Part shown: piece by piece, positions 7,520 through 45,433 of the stretch
How the letters are laid out: each line of letters begins with the position of its first letter
How positions within the stretch are numbered: position 1 is the first letter of the stretch
Assembly: GCA_023137185.1 (NCBI GenBank)
Contig: JAGLPS010000019.1
Location: 309 to 64,308 of the forward strand
Source: Minisyncoccota bacterium
GTDB lineage: Bacteria; Patescibacteriota; Minisyncoccia; Phycocordibacterales; JAGLPS01
Direction of reading: 5' to 3'
Length of the DNA: 64,000 nucleotides
Translations under genes and position numbers: made by a program
Notes under the pieces: model-generated
Database searches by the model: none
Told to the model about the DNA's origin: nothing
What the model saw: only the letters and a program-made list of their open reading frames with translations

Positions 7520-8035
7520 TCACGGGCTCAAATACGCAGTTTTGTAGAAACACTCTTCCCTTTCTTTAAGAAGGTGAAGATAAAATTCAGCATTTCCATA
7601 TTTTGTAAGAATTAATGTGGCAATTGATGTACCGTTAACTTCCACATCCTCGGTTACAAATACAGCATCAGGCACAAGTTTTTTGAGCCTATTAAGCGGC
7701 TCCGGTAGAGAGGAAAAAAGACTAAAGGGTAAGGTAGTGCGACGATATTTAAATCGAGATTCTTTCTGGTCCTTAAACAAACCGACTGAACGACAATCCC
7801 AAAAAAAATCTGTAGAAATTTCGTTGGCATACCTCTTCACTGATTCCTCGGTCAGCGGCTTGATACGAAGCGCGTTAAGAGCTTTCATAAGCACCTTTGC
7901 TTGTGCGCTTTCGCGCCGTGCCTTCCCCGGACTAAATAAGCGGCCACGAAAGGAAGCGAGCCTGTCTTGTATGGGTAGATTGTTGATGAGTAAATAGACA
8001 GGAACCCTTTTTAAAAGCTGCTTGTGTTTTGTCAC
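7520..8035 (-). CDS. Hypothetical protein
   Basis: A 171-aa ORF with no recognised domain, immediately upstream of dus. Confidence 0.35.
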   Translation of the reverse strand: MTKHKQLLKRVPVYLLINNLPIQDRLASFRGRLFSPGKARRESAQAKVLMKALNALRIKPLTEESVKRYANEISTDFFWDCRSVGLFKDQKESRFKYRRTTLPFSLFSSLPEPLNRLKKLVPDAVFVTEDVEVNGTSIATLILTKYGNAEFYLHLLKEREECFYKTAYLSP

Positions 8036-8148
8036 TTTGCCCTCCTTTCTTTATGAAAAGAATTTAACCTAAAACTAGTTATAGCACAAAATCATCTTTT
8101 GCAAAGGAGAACCCATCCTATAAGATGCCGCTTGTACTACCTCATTGC

Positions 8149-8190
8149 GCAAGCGCTATAATTGGCTTTTTAAGTTTTTTCCAAAATCCC
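8149..8190. repeat. Exact 42-bp duplicate of the 5' end of the dus gene (7411..7452), displaced into the intergenic region
   Basis: GCAAGCGCTATAATTGGCTTTTTAAGTTTTTTCCAAAATCCC is present at both sites. Confidence 0.8.
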
Positions 8191-8331
8191 AAATTCATAG
8201 CTTCAAGATTAACACGTTCCCACAATATAAGCGTGGAAATACTTGACGTACTATTTTAAATATGATGTTATGTAAAAAGATAGAGTCAAAAGAATCTTAA
8301 AAAGATGTTCTTTAACAAGGAGGAAGTAAAA

Positions 8332-17479: not shown

Positions 17480-19708
17480 TTGGTATCAATGACTAAGTTG
17501 TTAATTGTAGAATCACCGGCAAAAGCCAAAACCATCACAAAGTATCTTGATGATACATATACCGTTACCGCGTCAGTCGGGCACATAAGAGACTTGCCAA
17601 AAAGCAATAAGAAAGCCGTGGATATAGAACACGGTTTTGTTCCACATTACGAAATTTCCAAAGGAAAAGAGAAAGTTATTTCGGAAATAAAAAGTCTCGC
17701 AAAAAAAGCAGAGGAGGTGCTTCTCGCGACCGACCCCGACCGCGAAGGAGAAGCGATCGCGTGGCATATAATTCAAGCCTGCGATTTAGAAAATCAAAAG
17801 TTAAAAGTCAAAAGGATTGTTTTTCACGAAATTACCAAAGACGCCGTCAACGAAGCATTAAAGCATCCCCGAGATATTGATAACGACTTGAAGGAAGCTC
17901 AGGAGGCCCGCCGTGTTCTTGACCGCCTCGTCGGCTACGACTTGTCGGGACTTATCTGGAAAAAAGTTAGATATGGACTTTCCGCGGGACGAGTGCAATC
18001 CCCCGCTTTGCGAATCCTCTCCGAACGCGAGCGCGAAATCGCGGCTTTTATTCCCCAGAAATATTGGGTTATTGACGCGGACACAGAAACTGATAAAAAA
18101 GAAAAAATTACTTTTACCTGCGCGAAAGAACCCACTGAAGAAAAAGAAGCGGAAGAGATTTTGAAACGAGGAAAAGAGGCGCAATGGAAAATTGTTGATG
18201 TTAAAGAAACAAAAGGGAAACGTGCACCGAAAGCTCCTTTTATCACTTCAACTCTCCAACAAGCCGCAAGTTCCCGTCTTGGATTTTCGCCATCACGCGC
18301 GATGATGCTTGCCCAGAAACTTTATGAAGCGGGATTCATTACATATATGCGCACCGATAGCACTACCATAAGTGGTTCTATTGCCACTCATATCGCGGAA
18401 GTTATCAAAAAAGAGTTCGGAGAAAAATTATACACGCCGCGTGTATATAAAACAAAATCAAAAAACGCGCAAGAAGCGCACGAAGCAATACGTCCAACTG
18501 ATGTACTGAAGAGGTTTGCTGGACACAATGACGCGGAGAAAGCGCTCTACCAGCTTATCTGGGAAAGAACTGTCGCCTCTCAAATGGCAGACGCTATTGT
18601 TTTGAAAACCCGCGTCATCGCGGAAGGAGGAAAGGAAAATCCTGAGTTTACGGCAAATGGTTCGCGAATTATTTCACCCGGCTGGCTCCTTGCTGACCCG
18701 CGCGCGCGAGGCGAAGACGTAGAACTGCCGAAAGTGCAAGCTCAAGACAATCTCTCTCTGCTTAAAATACGCTCTGAAGAAAAAGAAACGCTTCCCCCGC
18801 CTCGCTATTCAGAGGCCGGCCTCGTAAAAGAGCTTGAAAAGCGCGGTATTGGTCGCCCTTCCACTTACGCGGCTATCATAAAAACCATTCAGGAAAGAGG
18901 CTACGTTGAGAAAATAAACCGCAGTCTCAAAGTAACAGACACAGGCGAAGTAGTAAGCTCTTTTCTAGAAAATAATTTCGCAAAATACGTAAGCGATACA
19001 TTTACCGCCGAGATGGAAAACAAGCTTGACGCAATCGCCGATGGACAAGCCACATATACAAAAATACTTGAAGACTTTTATGCCCCATTCGCCAAGGATG
19101 TGGAATCAAAACAGGACACGGAAAAAATCACGACACTGGGAGACGCTGAACCTCATCACAAATGTCCTTTGTGCGGAGGAGATATGATTATAAAACTCGG
19201 ACGAACCGGAAAGTTTTTAAGTTGTAAAAAATTCCCAGAATGCAAAGGCGCGCGAACACTGGAAGGAGAAGCAATGGAAGGACCAAAAGAAACTGGAGAA
19301 AACTGTCCCGAATGCGCAAAAAGCCTGCCTGTTGAGAAACAAGGAAAACTTGTAGAGCGTATGGGACGATTCGGAAAATTTATCGCTTGTAGCCGTTATC
19401 CCAAATGTAAGTACGTCAGGAAAGACCCCGCTCAAGAAGAAAAGGCAAAAACAGGAGTTAAGTGCCCCGAATGCGCAAAAAGCCTGCCTGCCGATAAGCA
19501 AGGTGAAATTATGGAGCGTCGCGGACGATTTGGACCTTTTTTCAGTTGCAGCAACTACCCTGATTGCCGTTTTAATATAAAATCAAAACCGACAGGAAAA
19601 TTGTGCGAGGATTGCGGTTCTCTAATGATGGAAGGCACGAAGACTATCCCTGAACGTTGTAGCAACAAAAACTGTCCAAATCACAATCCTCATAAAAAAA
19701 TAAAGTAA
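17480..19708 (+). CDS. topA: DNA topoisomerase I with C-terminal zinc-ribbon repeats
   Basis: TOPRIM TDPDREGEAIAWHI, and multiple CPxC...C Zn ribbons (CPLCGGDM, CPECAKS x2, CEDCGS). The start may be Met-4 (MTKLL). Confidence 0.9.
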   Translation: MVSMTKLLIVESPAKAKTITKYLDDTYTVTASVGHIRDLPKSNKKAVDIEHGFVPHYEISKGKEKVISEIKSLAKKAEEVLLATDPDREGEAIAWHIIQACDLENQKLKVKRIVFHEITKDAVNEALKHPRDIDNDLKEAQEARRVLDRLVGYDLSGLIWKKVRYGLSAGRVQSPALRILSEREREIAAFIPQKYWVIDADTETDKKEKITFTCAKEPTEEKEAEEILKRGKEAQWKIVDVKETKGKRAPKAPFITSTLQQAASSRLGFSPSRAMMLAQKLYEAGFITYMRTDSTTISGSIATHIAEVIKKEFGEKLYTPRVYKTKSKNAQEAHEAIRPTDVLKRFAGHNDAEKALYQLIWERTVASQMADAIVLKTRVIAEGGKENPEFTANGSRIISPGWLLADPRARGEDVELPKVQAQDNLSLLKIRSEEKETLPPPRYSEAGLVKELEKRGIGRPSTYAAIIKTIQERGYVEKINRSLKVTDTGEVVSSFLENNFAKYVSDTFTAEMENKLDAIADGQATYTKILEDFYAPFAKDVESKQDTEKITTLGDAEPHHKCPLCGGDMIIKLGRTGKFLSCKKFPECKGARTLEGEAMEGPKETGENCPECAKSLPVEKQGKLVERMGRFGKFIACSRYPKCKYVRKDPAQEEKAKTGVKCPECAKSLPADKQGEIMERRGRFGPFFSCSNYPDCRFNIKSKPTGKLCEDCGSLMMEGTKTIPERCSNKNCPNHNPHKKIK

Positions 19709-19986
19709 TATTAAAGCACGCAAACTGCTTTGCGTGCGCAACTAGTCTGAGTGAGCCGGAGCGATGTTTCTGTAGCAACAGAAACCGCGAGGCGGGTGAG
19801 AAATGCTGGGAGCATTTCGCAAGACCTTTTGAGACAATTTCTGAATTGTCCAAAAGGTGTACAGACTCTGTAAGAGTCACAAGTCATTCAAGCTCCGTCG
19901 AGCTTGAATGACTTGTGACCGAAGACTATCCCTGAACGTTGTAGCAACAAAAACTGCCCAAATCACAATCCTCATAAAAAAAACTA
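19709..19986 (+). mobile_element. 211-bp non-coding structured element inserted immediately after the topA stop. It is followed by a near-identical duplicate of the last ~66 bp of topA, carrying its own in-frame stop (PHKKN*).
   Basis: topA 19642..19708 is repeated at 19920..19986 with 2 mismatches plus an altered terminal codon. The element begins with the hairpin GCACGCAAACTGCTTTGCGTGC. It ends with CCAAAAGGTGTACAGACTCTGTAAGAGTC plus a 20-bp-stem hairpin. The same 3' motif ends the tRNA-linked elements. Confidence 0.5.
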
Positions 19987-23236: not shown

Positions 23237-23318
23237 GCCGAGGTGGCGGAATTGGTAGACGCGCACGACTCAAAATCGTGTGGGGAAACTCATGAGGGTT
23301 CAAGTCCCTCCCTCGGCA
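23237..23318 (+). tRNA. tRNA-Leu (anticodon CAA), class II
   Basis: GCCGAGGUGGCGGAAUUGGUAGACGC, anticodon arm CACGA-CUCAAAA-UCGUG, long variable arm, T-arm GAGGG-UUCAAGU-CCCUC, acceptor CCUCGGC-A. No CCA is encoded. Confidence 0.8.
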
Positions 23319-23638
23319 CAAATTGAGCAAAGCGAAAGCTGTGCCGAGGGAGGCGCAGCTTTCTTTCTGAAGAAAGCGTCGCGCGGACTTGAAGCCCGAT
23401 TGAGATTTTCTTGAATCCAAAGGATGAAAAGAAAATCCAATTGGGGTACTGTTCCTGTAAGGAACAGTACCCCAACACAAGTAGTCAAGGCGAAGTTGGG
23501 CGCGGCAAAATCGTGTGGGGAAAGGCTTGAGGGTTGAGGCGCGAATACTTGGAGCGCCGAAAAATCTTGTGAGATTTTTTCTGAAAAATCCACAAGGTGT
23601 ACAGAACCTGTAAGATTCAAGTCCCTCCCTCGGCACCA
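23319..23638 (+). mobile_element. tRNA-3'-end-linked element. It comprises module B (about 130 bp), the hairpin GGGGTACTGTTCC-TGTAA-GGAACAGTACCCC, a partial tRNA-Leu copy (anticodon-3' half to T-stem), the GGTGTACAGAACCTGTAAG motif, and a duplicate of the tRNA 3' end with CCA (ATTCAAGTCCCTCCCTCGGCACCA).
   Basis: It starts exactly after the discriminator A. Module B is shared with 30473..30630 and 40615..40777. Confidence 0.5.
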
Positions 23639-23645
23639 AGTCAAA

Positions 23646-30197: not shown

Positions 30198-30280
30198 GCG
30201 CAGGTGGCGGAGTGGTCAATCGCGCCTGACTGTAAATCAGGTGGCTTATGCCTACGGGGGTTCAAATCCCTCCCTGCGCA
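30198..30280 (+). tRNA. tRNA-Tyr (anticodon GUA), long variable arm
   Basis: GCGCAGG-UG-GCGGAGUGGUCAAUCGC, anticodon arm CCUGA-CUGUAAA-UCAGG, variable arm GUGGCUUAUGCCUAC, T-arm GGGGG-UUCAAAU-CCCUC, acceptor CCUGCGC-A. Confidence 0.8.
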
Positions 30281-30818
30281 CAAAATCAAATTTCAGCAGG
30301 TTCTCCTGCTGAAATTTGTATTTCTAGTAGCACACGCAGTGTGCGATGGGATTTGAAAGATTTTGCGGGGCTACCCATTCAGCAGAATGGGTCGCAAAAT
30401 CAGGGCTGAGAAATTTTTTACTGCGGCGGCAGTAAAAAATGTTCTTGGCCAAATCCCTCCCTGCGCACAGATTGAGCAAAGCGAGAGCTGTGGCTGGGAG
30501 GCGCAGCTTTTTTTCTGAAGAAAGCGTTGCGCGGATTTGAAAACCTTTTGAGGTTTTTTGGAGTCAAAGACGAACAAAAAATCCAAAAGGTGTACAGAAA
30601 CTGTAAGTTTCAAATCCCTCCCTGCGCACAAAATCAAATTTCAGCAGGTTCTCCTGCTGAAATTTGTATTTCTAGTAGCACACGCAGTGTGCGATGGGAT
30701 TTGAAAGATTTTGCGGGGTTACCCATTCAGCAGAATGGGTCGCAAAATCAGGGCTGAGAAATTTTTTACTGCGGCAGCAGTAAAAAATGTTCTCGGCCAA
30801 GTCCCTCAGCGCGCACAA
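30281..30818 (+). mobile_element. Three tandem tRNA-3'-end-linked elements. Module A (30281..30472), module B (30473..30630) and module A' (30631..30818) each end in a duplicate of the tRNA-Tyr 3' end (AAATCCCTCCCTGCGCA; degenerate in the third).
   Basis: Module A and A' are about 97% identical over about 190 bp and are built from four near-perfect hairpins. Module B matches the elements at the Leu-CAA and Leu-UAG loci and ends CCAAAAGGTGTACAGAAACTGTAAGTTTC. Confidence 0.55.
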
Positions 30819-31011
30819 AAATTATACAAAAATATTTCTTCAAAATTTCGCCTGACATCGCGGTTATCTGAAGTTGCCGAAGGCAATTTTGGGATTTTTC
30901 GCAGGAAAATCTCAGATAATCGCTGTTAGGCGTCCCGAGCGGAATGAAATGGAGCGAGTGCCTGCAAGGCGTGGTCGGAGTAAAATCTTTGATTTTACGG
31001 AGAAGTTGAAT

Positions 31012-39555: not shown

Positions 39556-39630
39556 GGCCTGGTAGACAAGTGGTAAGTCGAGAGTCTGCAAAACTCTTAT
39601 GCGCGGGTTCGATTCCCGCCCAGGCCTCCA
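39556..39630 (+). tRNA. tRNA-Cys (anticodon GCA), CCA encoded
   Basis: GGCCUGG-UA-GACAAGUGGUAAGUC-GAGAG-UCUGCAAAA-CUCUU-AUGC-GCGGG-UUCGAUU-CCCGC-CCAGGCC-U-CCA. Confidence 0.8.
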
Positions 39631-39895
39631 GAAAACTGGTTGCAGTTTTCGTAGAGGACTAGGGAGTACGTAAACTGCTTTACGTGCGTCGGGAATCGAA
39701 AGGTGGAGGCACGTTTTTCTAGCAAGAAAAACAGCCGAGCCAAGGTCATGGAAATGTGTCTGCGACGGCAGACAAATTATCCCTGACCGATTCCCGCCCA
39801 GGCCTCCAGAAAACCGACTGTGGTTTTCGCAGAGGATTGGGAGCATGTAAACTGCTTTATATTCATAGGCTTTGTACCTTTTGTTTTTAAGGCAA
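39631..39895 (+). mobile_element. tRNA-3'-end-linked element. It starts with the hairpin GAAAACTGGTTGCAGTTTTC and a CGTAAACTGCTTTACG hairpin, and ends with a duplicate of the tRNA-Cys 3' end with CCA (39789..39808). A second truncated copy follows (39809..39895).
   Basis: GATTCCCGCCCAGGCCTCCA is repeated. The CUGC-loop hairpin is shared with the topA-linked element. Confidence 0.45.
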
Positions 39896-39981: not shown

Positions 39982-40201
39982 CAATGGCACATTATGATAT
40001 GAAGAAAAAAGAAACATACGAATCTGTACAGTAAAAAGTGTCACTAATAGAAAAATCTGGTAAAGTAGTAAAATATTCCCCGCCCATAGCCATGCCCCGT
40101 ACCTCCCGCAGCGGGATGGTATCGGGGTCAATTGGTAGATTCGCCAGCTGGCGGACTTTTAAAGAAAATGAAGCAGTTTGATTGTTTGAAAATTTAATCA
40201 T

Positions 40202-40274
40202 CCGCCCATAGCTCAGTTGGTAGAGCAGTTGCCTCTTAAGCAAATGGTCGCAGGTTCGAATCCTGCTGGGCGGA
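40202..40274 (+). tRNA. tRNA-Lys (anticodon CUU); unusual C1-G72 start
   Basis: CCGCCCA-UA-GCUCAGUUGGUAGAGC-A-GUUGC-CUCUUAA-GCAAA-UGGUC-GCAGG-UUCGAAU-CCUGC-UGGGCGG-A. It matches canonical bacterial tRNA-Lys apart from the 5' end. Confidence 0.7.
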
Positions 40275-40532
40275 CTCGCGAAGCGAGTCCGAGACGGAGG
40301 CTGACGAGCCGAGTCGGGCTCGCGCAAAAATTCAGCAGAATTTTATGTGTGAGGACACAAAGACTTTGCGAAGCGATAGGACGTCCAGAGAAAGCAAACT
40401 GCTTTGCTTTCGTCAGGATTCGAAGTTGCCTAACAAGCTAAAAACTAATAAACTACAAGCTGTGGTTATGGGCAGACGGGAAAATTCAAGTAGTACAGCA
40501 AAGCTGACCACAGGATAAATCCCGTACAAAGT

Positions 40533-40614
40533 GCTGGGGTGGCGAAATTGGTAGACGCGCTAGTCTTAGGAACTAGTGGAGCAATCCATGGGAGTTCAAG
40601 TCTCCCCCCCAGCA
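40533..40614 (+). tRNA. tRNA-Leu (anticodon UAG), class II
   Basis: GCUGGGG-UG-GCGAAAUUGGUAGACGC, anticodon arm CUAGU-CUUAGGA-ACUAG, long variable arm, T-arm GGGAG-UUCAAGU-CUCCC, acceptor CCCCAGC-A. Confidence 0.8.
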
Positions 40615-40777
40615 CAAATTGAGCAAAGCGAAAGCTGTGCCGAGGGAGGCGCAGCTTTCTTTCTGAAGAAAGCGTTGCGCGGACTTGAAGCCCGATTGAG
40701 ATTTTCTTGAATCCGAAGGATGAAAAGAAAATCCAATTGGGATACTGAAACTGTAAGTTTCAAGTCTCCCCCCAGCA
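40615..40777 (+). mobile_element. tRNA-3'-end-linked module B, ending in GATACTGAAACTGTAAGTTTC plus a duplicate of the tRNA-Leu(UAG) 3' end (AAGTCTCCCCCCAGCA)
   Basis: About 95% identical to module B at 23319.. and 30473... The whole tRNA-plus-element unit is bracketed by a 19-bp inverted repeat (40521..40539 and 40772..40790). Confidence 0.5.
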
Positions 40778-40888
40778 CTTTGTACGGGATTTGAAATAAC
40801 TTGACTTTTTTAAATATTTGTGACACTGTTACAAATAGAAGATAACGCTTTTTGAAATCGGTTTTTACATCCTAAAGGAGGGTGCAAA

Positions 40889-43253: not shown

Positions 43254-43529
43254 TTACGGAAAACTTGGACTATAAATTCCAAAAGTGCCAATGAGTACCT
43301 GTACTATTCCATAGACACTCCCCATTATAAACATTCCAATAAGCCCCCACATAATTGCTCGTTTTCCTTGAAGACGATCGTTATCGGTCAAACCCCCCTC
43401 ACCCTTTCCACTTATCACATACTGCACTACCCCCCAAACAAAAACAATCATTGCGACTGCGAACAAAAGTCGGATAAAAGGGTCAATAATGACTTCAGAA
43501 ACGCTGTTAAGAAAGGGACCAATTGACAT
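43254..43529 (-). CDS. Small two-helix membrane protein, VirB2/TrbC (T4SS pilin)-like paralog 1
   Basis: Helix-loop-helix hydrophobic topology with a central GKGEGG loop; similar to the five upstream paralogs. Confidence 0.4.
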   Translation of the reverse strand: MSIGPFLNSVSEVIIDPFIRLLFAVAMIVFVWGVVQYVISGKGEGGLTDNDRLQGKRAIMWGLIGMFIMGSVYGIVQVLIGTFGIYSPSFP

Positions 43530-43537
43530 ATCGAGCT

Positions 43538-43879
43538 TTATTGAACTGAAGGAACAGTAACTGAAGTTGTTTCCTGAATACCAAGTGCTTGGTTAATAAA
43601 GGCTACAATACCCCAGATTGACGCCATCACAAAGAGCGCGATTACTCCCCAAAGCATCATTGTCTTTCCTTTTGTTTGTGCTTCTTCATTTCCTCCAGCA
43701 AGAAGATACATTGCCAATCCCCAAAAGAAGAAAAGAAGCGCGGCAGCAAACGCGATAGGAATAAGAAGATCAACTATTGACCCAATTGCCTGAACAAGTG
43801 TTTGCACATTGCTTAAATTCTGAGCAAACGCGATTACAGGCGCCCCCAAAATTGCAAAAAGTGCTATATTTTTTTTCAT
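43538..43879 (-). CDS. VirB2/TrbC-like pilin paralog 2 (signal peptide MKKNIALFAILGAPVIAFA)
   Basis: Core AAALLFFFWGLAMYLLAGGNEEAQTKGKTMMLWGVIALFVMASIWGIV. Confidence 0.5.
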   Translation of the reverse strand: MKKNIALFAILGAPVIAFAQNLSNVQTLVQAIGSIVDLLIPIAFAAALLFFFWGLAMYLLAGGNEEAQTKGKTMMLWGVIALFVMASIWGIVAFINQALGIQETTSVTVPSVQ

Positions 43880-44055
43880 TTTTTTGTATAAAGCTAATAA
43901 AAATAATACGAAAACGACCTCATTTTCTAACAAATCATTCTTTATAATACCTTAATTTCAAGCGAAGAACAAGGAGACTGTGGATAAATACCAAGGAGGA
44001 TAAAGCAATTTTAAGGTATTTGTTATTCAAAAAAAAGACCGACCTGATTCACCGT

Positions 44056-44370
44056 CTAAAAAATGTCTTCTTGGAAGAATGTGATAATCCCCCAAATCGA
44101 GACCATAACAAAAAGAGCGGTAATCCCCCATTGCATAAGCCGTTTACCATCGGCGCGCGCTTTCTCGTTATCAGCATTAAGAATAAACTTTGCCAATCCC
44201 CAAAAGAAGAAAAGAAGAGCGGCGGCAGCGGCAATACGAGTAAGGTCATTAAAAAAATCTACAAGGTACCACAAAATCTCTTGGATATTCTCAAAGGCTT
44301 CTGTAATGAATGGGAAAGAAACTAAAATGGAAATAAATATAAGAAAAATGGAGAATGAATATATTTTCAT
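44056..44370 (-). CDS. VirB2/TrbC-like pilin paralog 3
   Basis: Core AAAALLFFFWGLAKFILNADNEKARADGKRLMQWGITALFVMVSIWGII. Confidence 0.5.
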   Translation of the reverse strand: MKIYSFSIFLIFISILVSFPFITEAFENIQEILWYLVDFFNDLTRIAAAAALLFFFWGLAKFILNADNEKARADGKRLMQWGITALFVMVSIWGIITFFQEDIF

Positions 44371-44380
44371 AAGACCTTAA

Positions 44381-44710
44381 TTAAAAACGTGGAGCAAGCG
44401 GCACACCAAATTGAAAGTCAAAACTTCCCGCAATGATACTTGCAAGCGCCCAGGCCGAAAGAATTACGAACAGACCTATAATTCCCCACAGCATAAGTTT
44501 TTTTCCTTCTTCAACCGATTCTTCACTTCCCCCACGAGAGAGAAATTTAGCCAAACCCCATACAAAAAGAAAAAGAGCGTACGCCACCGCTGCCGGAAGC
44601 GCCAGATTTATAATTCCTATAACAATCCCTACAAAACCGCTAAAATCCTGCGGCTGAGCAAACGCCATTAGAGGAAAAAGAAATGAAATTAAAAGCAAAA
44701 AATATCGCAT
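44381..44710 (-). CDS. VirB2/TrbC-like pilin paralog 4 (signal peptide MRYFLLLISFLFPLMAFA)
   Basis: Core AYALFLFVWGLAKFLSRGGSEESVEEGKKLMLWGIIGLFVILSAWAL. Confidence 0.5.
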   Translation of the reverse strand: MRYFLLLISFLFPLMAFAQPQDFSGFVGIVIGIINLALPAAVAYALFLFVWGLAKFLSRGGSEESVEEGKKLMLWGIIGLFVILSAWALASIIAGSFDFQFGVPLAPRF

Positions 44711-44713
44711 AAA

Positions 44714-45055
44714 TTAACCTGTGATTTGGCTGATAGTATTTTCAATAACCTGCGCTATTACCCACGCGCCAAGCAGGATAATCGCTCCGATAGCGCTCCA
44801 CAAAAACGCCCGTTTTGCCACCTCCAGTTTTTCTGGGTTTCCTTGCGCCGTGACAAAAAGAAAACCAGAATAAATAATTGCCAAGACTACAATCACAGCG
44901 CCTATTGGAATAACTATATCCGTGACAATAACCTCAACAAATTTGCCAAGCGTATCAATACCTCCCTTGAGAGGATTTTCAATTCCCTGGGCAGAAACTG
45001 CTAAAGGCAGAGTGCCTGCAATAAGTGAAACAAGTGATATATATGCTTTTTTCAT
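44714..45055 (-). CDS. VirB2/TrbC-like pilin paralog 5 (signal peptide ...LAVSAQG)
   Basis: Core VLAIIYSGFLFVTAQGNPEKLEVAKRAFLWSAIGAIILLGAWVIAQV. Confidence 0.45.
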   Translation of the reverse strand: MKKAYISLVSLIAGTLPLAVSAQGIENPLKGGIDTLGKFVEVIVTDIVIPIGAVIVVLAIIYSGFLFVTAQGNPEKLEVAKRAFLWSAIGAIILLGAWVIAQVIENTISQITG

Positions 45056-45064
45056 AATAGGTAA

Positions 45065-45433
45065 TTAGAGATATGAATAGCTTTCTTTGACAAGAGCGCC
45101 GAGAATAGTGTGAACGATAAGCCACGCGCTTAAAATAATAATAAATCCCCATAACACTTTCCAAAATACTAAATGCGCCTTTTTTATCTGATTCTCACTG
45201 CCTCCTGCCGTGAGATACAAAAATCCAGCGTACACAAACGCGATAACAGCAAGAGGAATTGAGATAACAACAAGAAAATTAACGATACTGTCCCCAAGTT
45301 CCAAAAGAGACCCGAAGTTGCAATCAAGACCGTCACACGGAACAATCCCCTCTTGAGAAAATACGAGTAATGGAAAAACAAAAAAGAGAATACTCGCAAG
45401 AAAAAAAGACTTTTTAAAAATAAGTGATTTCAT
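45065..45433 (-). CDS. VirB2/TrbC-like pilin paralog 6 (signal peptide; CDGLDC motif)
   Basis: Core AVIAFVYAGFLYLTAGGSENQIKKAHLVFWKVLWGFIIILSAWLIV. Confidence 0.45.
   Translation of the reverse strand: MKSLIFKKSFFLASILFFVFPLLVFSQEGIVPCDGLDCNFGSLLELGDSIVNFLVVISIPLAVIAFVYAGFLYLTAGGSENQIKKAHLVFWKVLWGFIIILSAWLIVHTILGALVKESYSYL

Follow-up and report, generated by a model that had tools for sequence, protein, structure and literature searches.

The locus described here lies in a 64-kb stretch of contig JAGLPS010000019.1 (assembly GCA_023137185.1) from a Minisyncoccota bacterium, which we refer to as the window. It consists of an intact tRNA-Leu(UAG) gene, a 143-nt insert designated module B, and a displaced copy of the T-loop-to-3' end of the tRNA, all of which are enclosed by a perfect inverted repeat (Table 1). 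This order of tRNA, inserted module, 3'-end copy, and flanking inverted repeat had been read correctly in the original prediction, which was made from the DNA sequence. ARAGORN and the Rfam model RF00005 agreed on tRNA-Leu(UAG), and the proposed duplication of the tRNA 3' end was recovered as TTCAAGTCTCCCCCC at 40595-40609 and 40759-40773. The repeat, first described as a 19-mer, is even longer: the repeat finder returned a left arm at 40517-40539, AAATCCCGTACAAAGTGCTGGGG, and a right arm at 40770-40792, CCCCAGCACTTTGTACGGGATTT, each 23 nt in length, 100% complementary to each other, and separated by 230 nt. The 19-mer sequences had thus been right, but the right arm of the 19-mer is located at 40770-40788 and not at 40772-40790, and the pairing continues for 4 nt on each side at the outer end.

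The 23 bp are composed of 7 acceptor-stem bp, as had been proposed, and 16 flank bp. The acceptor-stem share is GCTGGGG (40533-40539), whose partner CCCCAGC (40770-40776) belongs to the downstream 3'-end copy, with the tRNA's own 3' strand being located at 40607-40613. T(-1) of the leader pairs with the discriminator A73, and the trailer CTTTGTACGGGATTT covers 40778-40792, with arm X, ACTTTGTACGGGATTT, beginning one base earlier at 40777. When the 291-nt stretch was folded as RNA, a structure of -132 kcal/mol (z = -10.8) was predicted, in which the 23-bp helix closes the whole fold. Only the 7 of the 23 pairs that come free with any copy of the acceptor strand can be credited to chance complementarity. 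As the chance of a 16-nt flank complement flush with the acceptor stem is about 4^-16 per position, we regard a chance origin as excluded for practical purposes; moreover, the flank 12-mer has two sites in the window, which are the two arms (one per strand), versus 0.19 expected with one mismatch allowed, and comparable pairing recurs at four other tRNAs but never in the control described below.

Outside the arms, no target-site duplication was found, the adjoining sequences ACAGGAT and GAAATAAC being no repeat of each other. A scan for promoters and terminators found none at the arms themselves, and a weak promoter-like match (TTGAAA, 16 nt, AATATT; 40791-40818) begins at the final two bases of the right arm. 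Three further assemblies of the same species (L001-L003; loci fetched for comparison carry L numbers throughout) all contain module B, and both arms are identical in these four strains.

The two 3' ends that flank module B differ in quality. The proximal one has a run of 7 C and perfect T- and acceptor stems and is therefore the functional one, whereas the C-run of the distal copy comprises 6 C in the window and 8 C in strain L002, which indicates that this copy is drifting. The arrangement thus directly indicates that module B separates the tRNA from its original 3' end and trailer. From start to start, module B and the end duplication measure 164 nt, and the right arm therefore lies 157 nt downstream, behind module B, as is expected if a palindrome-flanked tRNA later gained the module and the end duplication.

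The inverted repeat is thus probably the tRNA-Leu(UAG)'s own leader-trailer palindrome, a young by-product of a rearrangement, which was split by module B and the 3'-end duplication. The tRNA would first have been flanked by a palindrome, in which a 16-nt leader was exactly complementary to a 16-nt trailer, flush with the acceptor stem. This intact palindrome-flanked tRNA would later have received module B together with the duplicated T-loop-to-3' end, an insertion that would have pushed the original 3' end and trailer away from the working tRNA and moved the right arm 157 nt further. The palindrome itself may have been formed by a DNA rearrangement, of which fold-back copying or template switching with the acceptor-stem repeat as primer would be examples. 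In its split form, it would now be without a dedicated role, and co-transcriptional folding as well as RNase P would have acted on the tRNA by the time the distal arm is synthesized.

Leader-trailer palindromes at other tRNA genes

We surveyed the leaders and trailers of 154 distinct tRNAs from the window and the fetched related loci, with an offset leader as control. Five of these tRNAs have a leader that complements the trailer over at least 10 nt, flush with the acceptor stem, whereas the control yielded none. Besides the tRNA-Leu(UAG) of the window, these were a tRNA-Leu(UAG) in L047, tRNA-Pro(CGG) in L026 and L076, and tRNA-Ile(UAU) in L021. The four palindromes outside the window directly flank a bare tRNA, are unrelated in sequence, and are perfect or nearly so. 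In L047, it is the syntenic tRNA-Leu(UAG) that is flanked directly, with no module, and the helix contains two G.U but no A.C pairs. Further perfect palindromes that would fit a tendency toward young structures made by DNA-level events at tRNA genes are the hairpins that abut tRNA 3' ends and the palindrome at 23443-23473.

The original prediction had considered that the repeat could represent the terminal inverted repeats (TIRs) of an element made of the tRNA and module B. This idea was not borne out: a search for further copies of the 12-bp flank in the 64-kb window yielded the two arms and nothing else, module B occurs without these flanks after tRNA-Leu(CAA) and tRNA-Tyr, and the palindromes at other tRNAs are unrelated in sequence and enclose the bare tRNA. 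Miniature inverted-repeat transposable elements are likewise small, non-coding, and bounded by inverted repeats, but here further copies of the arms are lacking, as are a target-site duplication of fixed length and a terminal sequence common to the family.

A processing helix had been proposed as well, together with the expectation that the flank pairing would be conserved at orthologous loci and that its absence from relatives with the same locus would speak against such a function. The helix does dominate the predicted fold, but it is not a conserved feature. The palindrome is missing from L058 and L037, which have the syntenic cluster RbfA-Cys-Leu(UAA)-Lys-Leu(UAG); the trailer arm is absent from L013, in which the tRNA 3' end runs straight into AACTTGACTT, a sequence that follows arm X in the window; and the palindrome of L047 differs in sequence. 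The absence that was to speak against such a function was thus largely observed, although these relatives are distant (about 50% protein identity). Orthologues identified via the downstream SPFH protein came from two distant relatives only, and both contigs end at the tRNA. An apparent 5' fragment of tRNA-Leu(UAG) upstream in L058 turned out to be tRNA-Leu(UAA).

RNase III cuts the leader-trailer stems of rRNA precursors and of some tRNA precursors, and these stems, as the one described here, are long perfect helices formed by sequences that flank a stable RNA. The 23-bp helix could in this sense be an RNase III-type processing or stability stem that directs the excision of a transcript comprising the tRNA, the module, and the copy. 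Its length would suffice for RNase III, the elements all share one orientation and are probably transcribed together, pairing is maintained in the L047 counterpart by two G.U pairs, and both arms are kept in four strains. We nevertheless consider this explanation improbable, as only about 3% of the tRNAs in related contigs (5 of 154) have such a stem and as it is lacking in the syntenic orthologues mentioned above. The present helix also differs from RNase III stems in being sporadic, unconserved in orthologues, flush with the acceptor stem, and split by an insertion. It moreover uses the decaying distal copy with its 6 or 8 C and would be in competition with the acceptor stem of the tRNA itself. 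According to excerpts of PMC9433436, RNase P is impeded when pairing continues beyond the acceptor stem, which argues against a simple processing benefit. Together with the lack of conservation of the palindrome and the scan that found no promoter or terminator at the arms themselves, this hindrance speaks against a conserved processing helix and favors a young structure that arose through DNA-level events at tRNA genes.

Three of the palindrome-flanked tRNAs are nested between the 5' and 3' fragments of the same tRNA (L026, 5371-6102, minus strand; L076, 1741-2472; L021, 5111-5845, minus strand). The outer tRNA is broken in the anticodon loop or D-loop in these tRNA-Pro and tRNA-Ile loci, and L076 contains two nested layers, each with its own, different arms. 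In L026, the outer acceptor halves CGGGATA/TATCCCG contrast with the inner halves CGGGATG/CATCCCG, and the outer gene reads as tRNA-Pro(UGG), the inner one as tRNA-Pro(CGG); in L021, the outer halves are CCGCCCT/AGGGCGG versus CCGCCCG/CGGGCGG in the inner gene. Because of these compensatory differences from the inner gene, the outer halves derive from a different allele or paralogue. Such nesting, including the two layers of L076 and the foreign origin of the outer halves, could be explained by an inserted cassette of leader arm, complete tRNA, and trailer arm that is mobile or becomes captured, hairpin apexes or a tRNA copy of the same kind already in place being examples of where it could go. 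Each insertion would in this case create the arms anew, which would be a modified form of the earlier idea of a tRNA-carrying element. It also fits that, both in the window and in L047, a truncated module belonging to the preceding tRNA lies ahead of the tRNA-Leu(UAG) unit. We rate the cassette as possible but not likely, since no outer tRNA-Leu fragments surround the unit in the window, the arms are unique in sequence and hence no recombinase-type TIRs, and a target-site duplication was not seen. Furthermore, a scan of 19 open reading frames (ORFs) of the window yielded no transposase, integrase, or reverse transcriptase, no recurrent protein was detected at 120 loci of the module family described below, and the mobile unit would be a bare tRNA, not the proposed tRNA with module B.

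With respect to the origin of the arms, Ripley as well as Lovett and co-workers reportedly described quasipalindrome template-switch mutations that generate inverted repeats or make them perfect by arm-to-arm copying. By analogy, such an event would explain perfect and unique arms flush with the 7-bp repeat as well as the 13-bp palindrome at 23443-23473. The classical cases differ in that they concern short hairpins with small loops, whereas a whole tRNA would take the place of the "loop" in the present case, with 14-18 nt having been added.

Several points weigh against a split palindrome of rearrangement origin. No allele with the palindrome but without module B was found among the loci compared, and the palindrome-first order is deduced from relatives. 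Perfect helices of 14-18 bp could equally reflect strong selection on RNA, and the G.U pairs of L047, with A.C pairs lacking, mildly favor a helix at the RNA level. The nesting in three relatives could mean that palindrome-flanked tRNAs are inserted cassettes. The template-switch origin is hypothetical and drawn from analogy, and the identity of both arms in all four strains precludes a covariation test from them. On balance, we read the palindrome as a young structural footprint and not as a conserved processing helix or TIR, the mechanism being unproven.

A family of structured modules at gene ends

Two results went beyond the original prediction, namely the displacement of the right arm by the insertion of module B and the membership of this module in a very large family. 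The 19-nt core motif at the module end, AAGGTGTACAGANNCTGTAAG, was found as an exact match at more than 120 metagenome loci among the matches listed. Family members share the orientation of their host genes, are usually accompanied by a duplicate of the gene end, and would reside in genomes of the Patescibacteria type. From 5' to 3', the typical anatomy comprises the tRNA, a terminator-like hairpin that abuts the end of the tRNA, an antisense segment to the acceptor 3' strand, a hairpin, an antisense segment to the T-loop and the 3' strand of the T-stem, a long hairpin closed by ACCUU/AAGGU, the sequence GUACA, a 5-bp hairpin with a UGUAA loop, and a sense copy of the T-loop-to-3' end. The size of the modules goes down to about 70 nt. 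A co-oriented tRNA lies at most 400 nt upstream at 60 of 102 sites, versus an opposite-strand tRNA at 1 of 102, and 28 of 88 sites have exact direct repeats of at least 14 nt on both sides of the motif (control: 0 of 88). The antisense to the module's own tRNA has a median length of 11 nt, versus 6 nt for non-cognate tRNAs. Hosts are tRNAs of at least 15 isotypes as well as 5S rRNA and topA. In L091 (10361-10705), the module separates the complete 5S gene from a 22-nt copy of the 5' end of this rRNA, and duplications on the 5' side occur at tRNAs as well (L054, L046, and L021). As copies exist at the topA 3' end and the 5S rRNA 5' end, the family is not tRNA-specific.

In an alignment of 52 trimmed members, the mini hairpin was paired in 98% and showed AU/UA/CG/GC exchanges, with a covariation score of 0.286 versus 0.129 for shuffled alignments (none of 500 shuffles scored as high; slid controls reached at most 0.12), and the anti-T helix covaried with the T-loop type. 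A covariance model, R1, was built from 34 metagenome members without any sequence of the window. R1 found five copies in the 64-kb window, including module B at tRNA-Leu(UAG), which was matched over the full length of the model (40674-40787, 57.4 bits, E = 4.3e-13). The family-defining features are thereby present in this module, with the junction reading AUACUG and not GUACAG.

Module B at tRNA-Leu(UAG) is 95.5% identical to 23298-23451, a segment that directly follows tRNA-Leu(CAA) 17 kb away. Its antisense block GTGCCGAGGGAGG is the reverse complement of the 3' end of tRNA-Leu(CAA) and not of tRNA-Leu(UAG), so that tRNA-Leu(UAG) evidently does not depend on the antisense match, and both flanking 3'-end copies are of the Leu(UAG) type despite the Leu(CAA)-type interior. 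In the strains L001 and L003, the Leu(UAG) module carries exactly the three variants of the Leu(CAA) copy, and the two Leu loci are identical over about 130 nt between GCAC/AAATTGAGC and TACTG (the slash marks the boundary). The simplest reading of these sequence relations would be that paralogous modules were recently copied or underwent gene conversion with each other.

Downstream of five of the nine tRNAs in the window, and of one essential protein gene, lies this element or a relative with the same architecture (Table 1), and a direct repeat of the tRNA 3' portion flanks the insert at tRNA-Cys, tRNA-Tyr, and tRNA-Leu(CAA), as it does at tRNA-Leu(UAG).

Table 1. Positions of the tRNA-Leu(UAG) locus, its parts, and the related modules within the window
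Feature	Position	Strand	Method
Left flank arm X', AAATCCCGTACAAAGT; 5' leader abutting tRNA position 1	40517-40532	+	Repeat finder
tRNA-Leu(UAG), intact	40533-40614 (end 40614/5)	+	ARAGORN; Rfam RF00005, 58.6 bits
tRNA-Leu(UAG): 5' acceptor strand	40533-40539	+	
tRNA-Leu(UAG): T-arm	40590-40606	+	
tRNA-Leu(UAG): 3' acceptor strand	40607-40613	+	
tRNA-Leu(UAG): A73	40614	+	
Module B, 143-nt insert	40616-40758	+	Repeat comparison; covariance model R1
Module B: antisense of tRNA-Leu(CAA) 3' end, GTGCCGAGGGAGG	40637-40649	+	
Module B: hairpin H2	40649-40680	+	
Module B: anti-T-loop GGACTTGAA, complement of T-loop	40681-40689	+	
Module B: long hairpin	40691-40741	+	
Module B: junction ATACTG	40742-40747	+	
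Module B: mini hairpin GAAAC-TGTAA-GTTTC, overlapping start of 3'-end copy	40747-40761	+	
Displaced copy of tRNA T-loop-to-3' end, TTCAAGTCTCCCCCCAGCAC, one C fewer than working copy	40759-40778	+	
Right arm of 23-bp repeat: 3' acceptor-strand copy (40770-40776) and trailer arm X, ACTTTGTACGGGATTT (40777-40792)	40770-40792	+	Repeat finder
Family module at topA 3' end	19709-19919	+	R1 (19821-19878, 47 bits)
Locus after tRNA-Leu(CAA): module B (23319-23451), partial tRNA copy, second module, 3'-end copy	23319-23636	+	R1
Copy of tRNA-Leu(CAA) 3' end	23616-23636	+	
Three-module array after tRNA-Tyr (tRNA-Tyr region 30198-30820)	30281-30820	+	R1
Module after tRNA-Cys (39631-39787), tRNA-Cys 3'-end copy (39788-39808), then truncated older module	39631-39880	+	
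Decayed module after tRNA-Lys(CUU); forms sequence upstream of left arm	40276-40516	+	

At the tRNA-Leu(CAA) locus, where R1 matched 23378-23491 (44.9 bits) and 23547-23644 (49 bits), the partial tRNA copy extends from the anticodon loop to the T-stem (about 23507-23536) and is broken in the T-loop by the second module, and the mini hairpin of module B forms the perfect 13-bp palindrome at 23443-23473. The tRNA-Tyr array is composed of module C (30281-30452), a 3'-end copy, module B' (30471-30610), another 3'-end copy, module C again (30631-30802), and a degenerate 3'-end copy, AAGTCCCTCAGCGCGCAC (30803-30820). B' is a diverged module B that was matched by R1 at 30526-30637 (92 bits, E = 2e-22). 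The topA module is flanked by a 63-nt direct repeat of the gene end (19639-19700 and 19920-19983), with a stop codon in each copy, the proximal one ending with HKKIK and the distal one with HKKN; its segment UAGUCU is complementary to the repeat start over 6 nt, or over 11 nt with tandem G.A pairs.

The module after tRNA-Cys contains an 11-nt antisense segment, CGGGAATCGAA, to the T-loop and the 3' T-stem strand of its own tRNA, and the module after tRNA-Lys(CUU) contains the anti-T-loop CAGGATTCGAA at 40414-40424. A 178-nt unit made of the tRNA-Cys 3' end and the module (39610-39787) is present in the window and precisely missing from strain L001, and L001 and L002 have one additional complete unit with a tRNA-Lys 3'-end copy after tRNA-Lys. 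L001-L003 thus differ in the distal C-run (6 or 8), the presence of the 178-nt tRNA-Cys unit, and, in two of them, the extra tRNA-Lys unit; the differences at tRNA-Cys and tRNA-Lys are explainable by unequal recombination between tandem repeats. Upstream of tRNA-Lys(CUU), a relic (40079-40160) comprises the first 11 nt of the tRNA, CCGCCCATAGC, hairpins, and the 3'-end-like sequence CTGGCGGAC. In L047, the first 16 nt of tRNA-Lys are followed by about 75 nt and then the complete gene, which constitutes a 5'-side duplication with a D-loop insert. The tRNA-Lys(CUU) itself (40202-40274) starts with a C1 that pairs with G72 (CCGCCCA/TGGGCGG), as it also does in related contigs including L037 and L058.

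The neighboring genes code for a short IF-2, RbfA, an SPFH protein, ClpB, GyrA, TopA, ParB, and RelA/SpoT. The SPFH protein of the window is identical to one in a metagenome-assembled genome named "Candidatus Pacebacteria bacterium", and contigs tend to end at these module-bearing tRNAs. Downstream of the SPFH gene, five or six small genes (43254-45433, minus strand) are T4SS_pilin (PF18895) matches according to the annotation precomputed for the identical contigs L001-L003, and this gene run is conserved in the distant relatives L013 and L014. In L091, the 23S gene exceeds the model by about 1.1 kb, and in L085 (6408-10408) two matches to the tRNA model (7893-7975 and 8125-8198) lie within the 23S rRNA span.

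No Rfam 15 family was found over the modules: only tRNAs came up there when the entire window was scanned at the gathering score and when four regions and one locus were scanned by E-value. Small self-cleaving ribozymes (hammerhead, hairpin, pistol, hatchet, and twister) were discarded because their cores did not convincingly match the junction by eye and no Rfam match was obtained, and a by-eye comparison of the conserved junction with the CR-V region of RNase P was unconvincing. Neither the core motif nor the H2 20-mer had a match among viral contigs, so there is no sign of a phage origin, and the H2 20-mer gave only chance matches to unrelated phyla among genome contigs. An all-against-all clustering of 551 ORFs near the 120 loci revealed no recurrent protein beyond those of the synteny genes IF-2 and RbfA, so that no autonomous version of the module was found at these loci. 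As no published description was found in the literature searched, the structured repeat family is apparently undescribed.

Relation to known elements and meaning

A direct repeat from the T-loop to the 3' end is also known from genomic islands and prophages that reside at tRNA genes by virtue of a tyrosine integrase, such as mycobacteriophage Ms6 (excerpts of PMC1762012). Islands of this kind share with the present loci a working proximal copy, a decaying displaced copy, and tandem accretion at one tRNA. Module B and the 3'-end copy could accordingly be the attL/attR scar of a tyrosine-integrase element in the T-loop of the tRNA, with the inverted repeat being incidental. The direct repeat would be a classic att arrangement with T-loop crossover, as presented in those excerpts of PMC1762012, and the accretion at tRNA-Tyr would fit. 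We consider such a scar quite unlikely, as no integrase was found in or by the inserts, either among the 19 ORFs of the window or as a recurrent neighbor at the 120 loci (the rest of the genome was not searched). In addition, the same family flanks a duplication of the 5S rRNA 5' end and the 63-nt duplication of the topA end, the modules covary in the manner of RNA and are strictly co-oriented with the host gene, and both repeat copies at the Leu(UAG) locus are of the Leu(UAG) type, whereas the module interior is of the Leu(CAA) type. In comparison to integrase islands, the inserts are also small (100-250 nt), non-coding, highly structured, and equipped with an antisense copy of the target.

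Another likeness concerns the mobile endonuclease/intron element in the mitochondrial atp6 gene of Allomyces, which brings a replacement gene end and leaves the resident end as a downstream pseudo-copy. As in the present case, the gene end is duplicated, the proximal end is functional, and the displaced one is left behind. Elements of the atp6 type encode an endonuclease, whereas the modules encode nothing.

The core of the modules loosely resembles that of group I introns. Like the group I introns located within Patescibacteria tRNA genes, as far as these are covered by excerpts of PMC13011429, and like the T-loop intron of transfer-messenger RNA, the modules are co-oriented with the RNA genes, and they carry a guide-like antisense to the host "exon". 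The module core AAGGUGUA(C)AGA matches the R element GGAAGGUGUAGAGACUA of the tRNA introns in PMC13011429, and the preceding module layout GGGUGAGAA-hairpin-GCAAG-hairpin parallels their J3/4-P4/P5-P6; core and layout together parallel the J3/4-P4/5-P6-J6/7-P7 region. Unlike group I introns, the modules lack the P3'/P8/P7' half with the S element, and their borders at topA and at the tRNAs show neither U(-1) nor a terminal G. Their antisense segments comprise 9-21 nt, covary with the host, and pair downstream of the site, which is unlike a canonical P1. Group I introns interrupt their host, whereas the host genes of the modules are uninterrupted since the displaced end is duplicated. The intron model RF00028 gave no match to the modules at E <= 5-10 or at the gathering score; by comparison, the true intron in L032 scored 38 bits, a value below the gathering score. 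This locus (L032, 577-1089) consists of a tRNA-Thr(UGU) with a true group I intron in the anticodon loop and a subsequent class-2 module, so that both types coexist. A functional intron that is spliced to the distal copy was ruled out, as the distal copies are degenerate and the border nucleotides do not fit.

We therefore use the term "intron-derived" for the modules as a lead and not as a classification. A tentative proposal is that they represent undescribed small, guide-bearing, group-I-intron-like RNA elements, possibly ribozymes or mobile relics, which settle in Patescibacteria at the ends of genes for tRNAs, rRNAs, and proteins, where the duplicated gene end would allow them to be tolerated. 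If so, the duplication could come from an "element plus exon fragment" intermediate that integrates beside the intact gene, the acceptor-flush palindromes and the onion-like nesting of tRNAs would be footprints of the same process, and tRNA loci in reduced genomes would be built by repeated RNA-guided insertion and self-healing.

The inverted repeat itself is a minor curiosity, and the larger result is the very abundant family of structured modules, found neither in Rfam 15 nor in the literature searched, to which the window, a 64-kb stretch of a genome of roughly the 1-Mb class, has led. If the modules are active, be it by self-cleavage, splicing, or RNA-guided mobility, they would represent a new way for selfish RNA to inhabit essential genes without killing, and they would account for the fact that, in these bacteria, assemblies made from short reads break at tRNA genes. 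If they are instead the remains of dead introns, they would document that streamlined genomes neutralize introns via the duplication of a short exon. Either way, the modules affect tRNA annotation in candidate-phyla genomes, in which pseudo-fragments and nested genes have to be taken into account.

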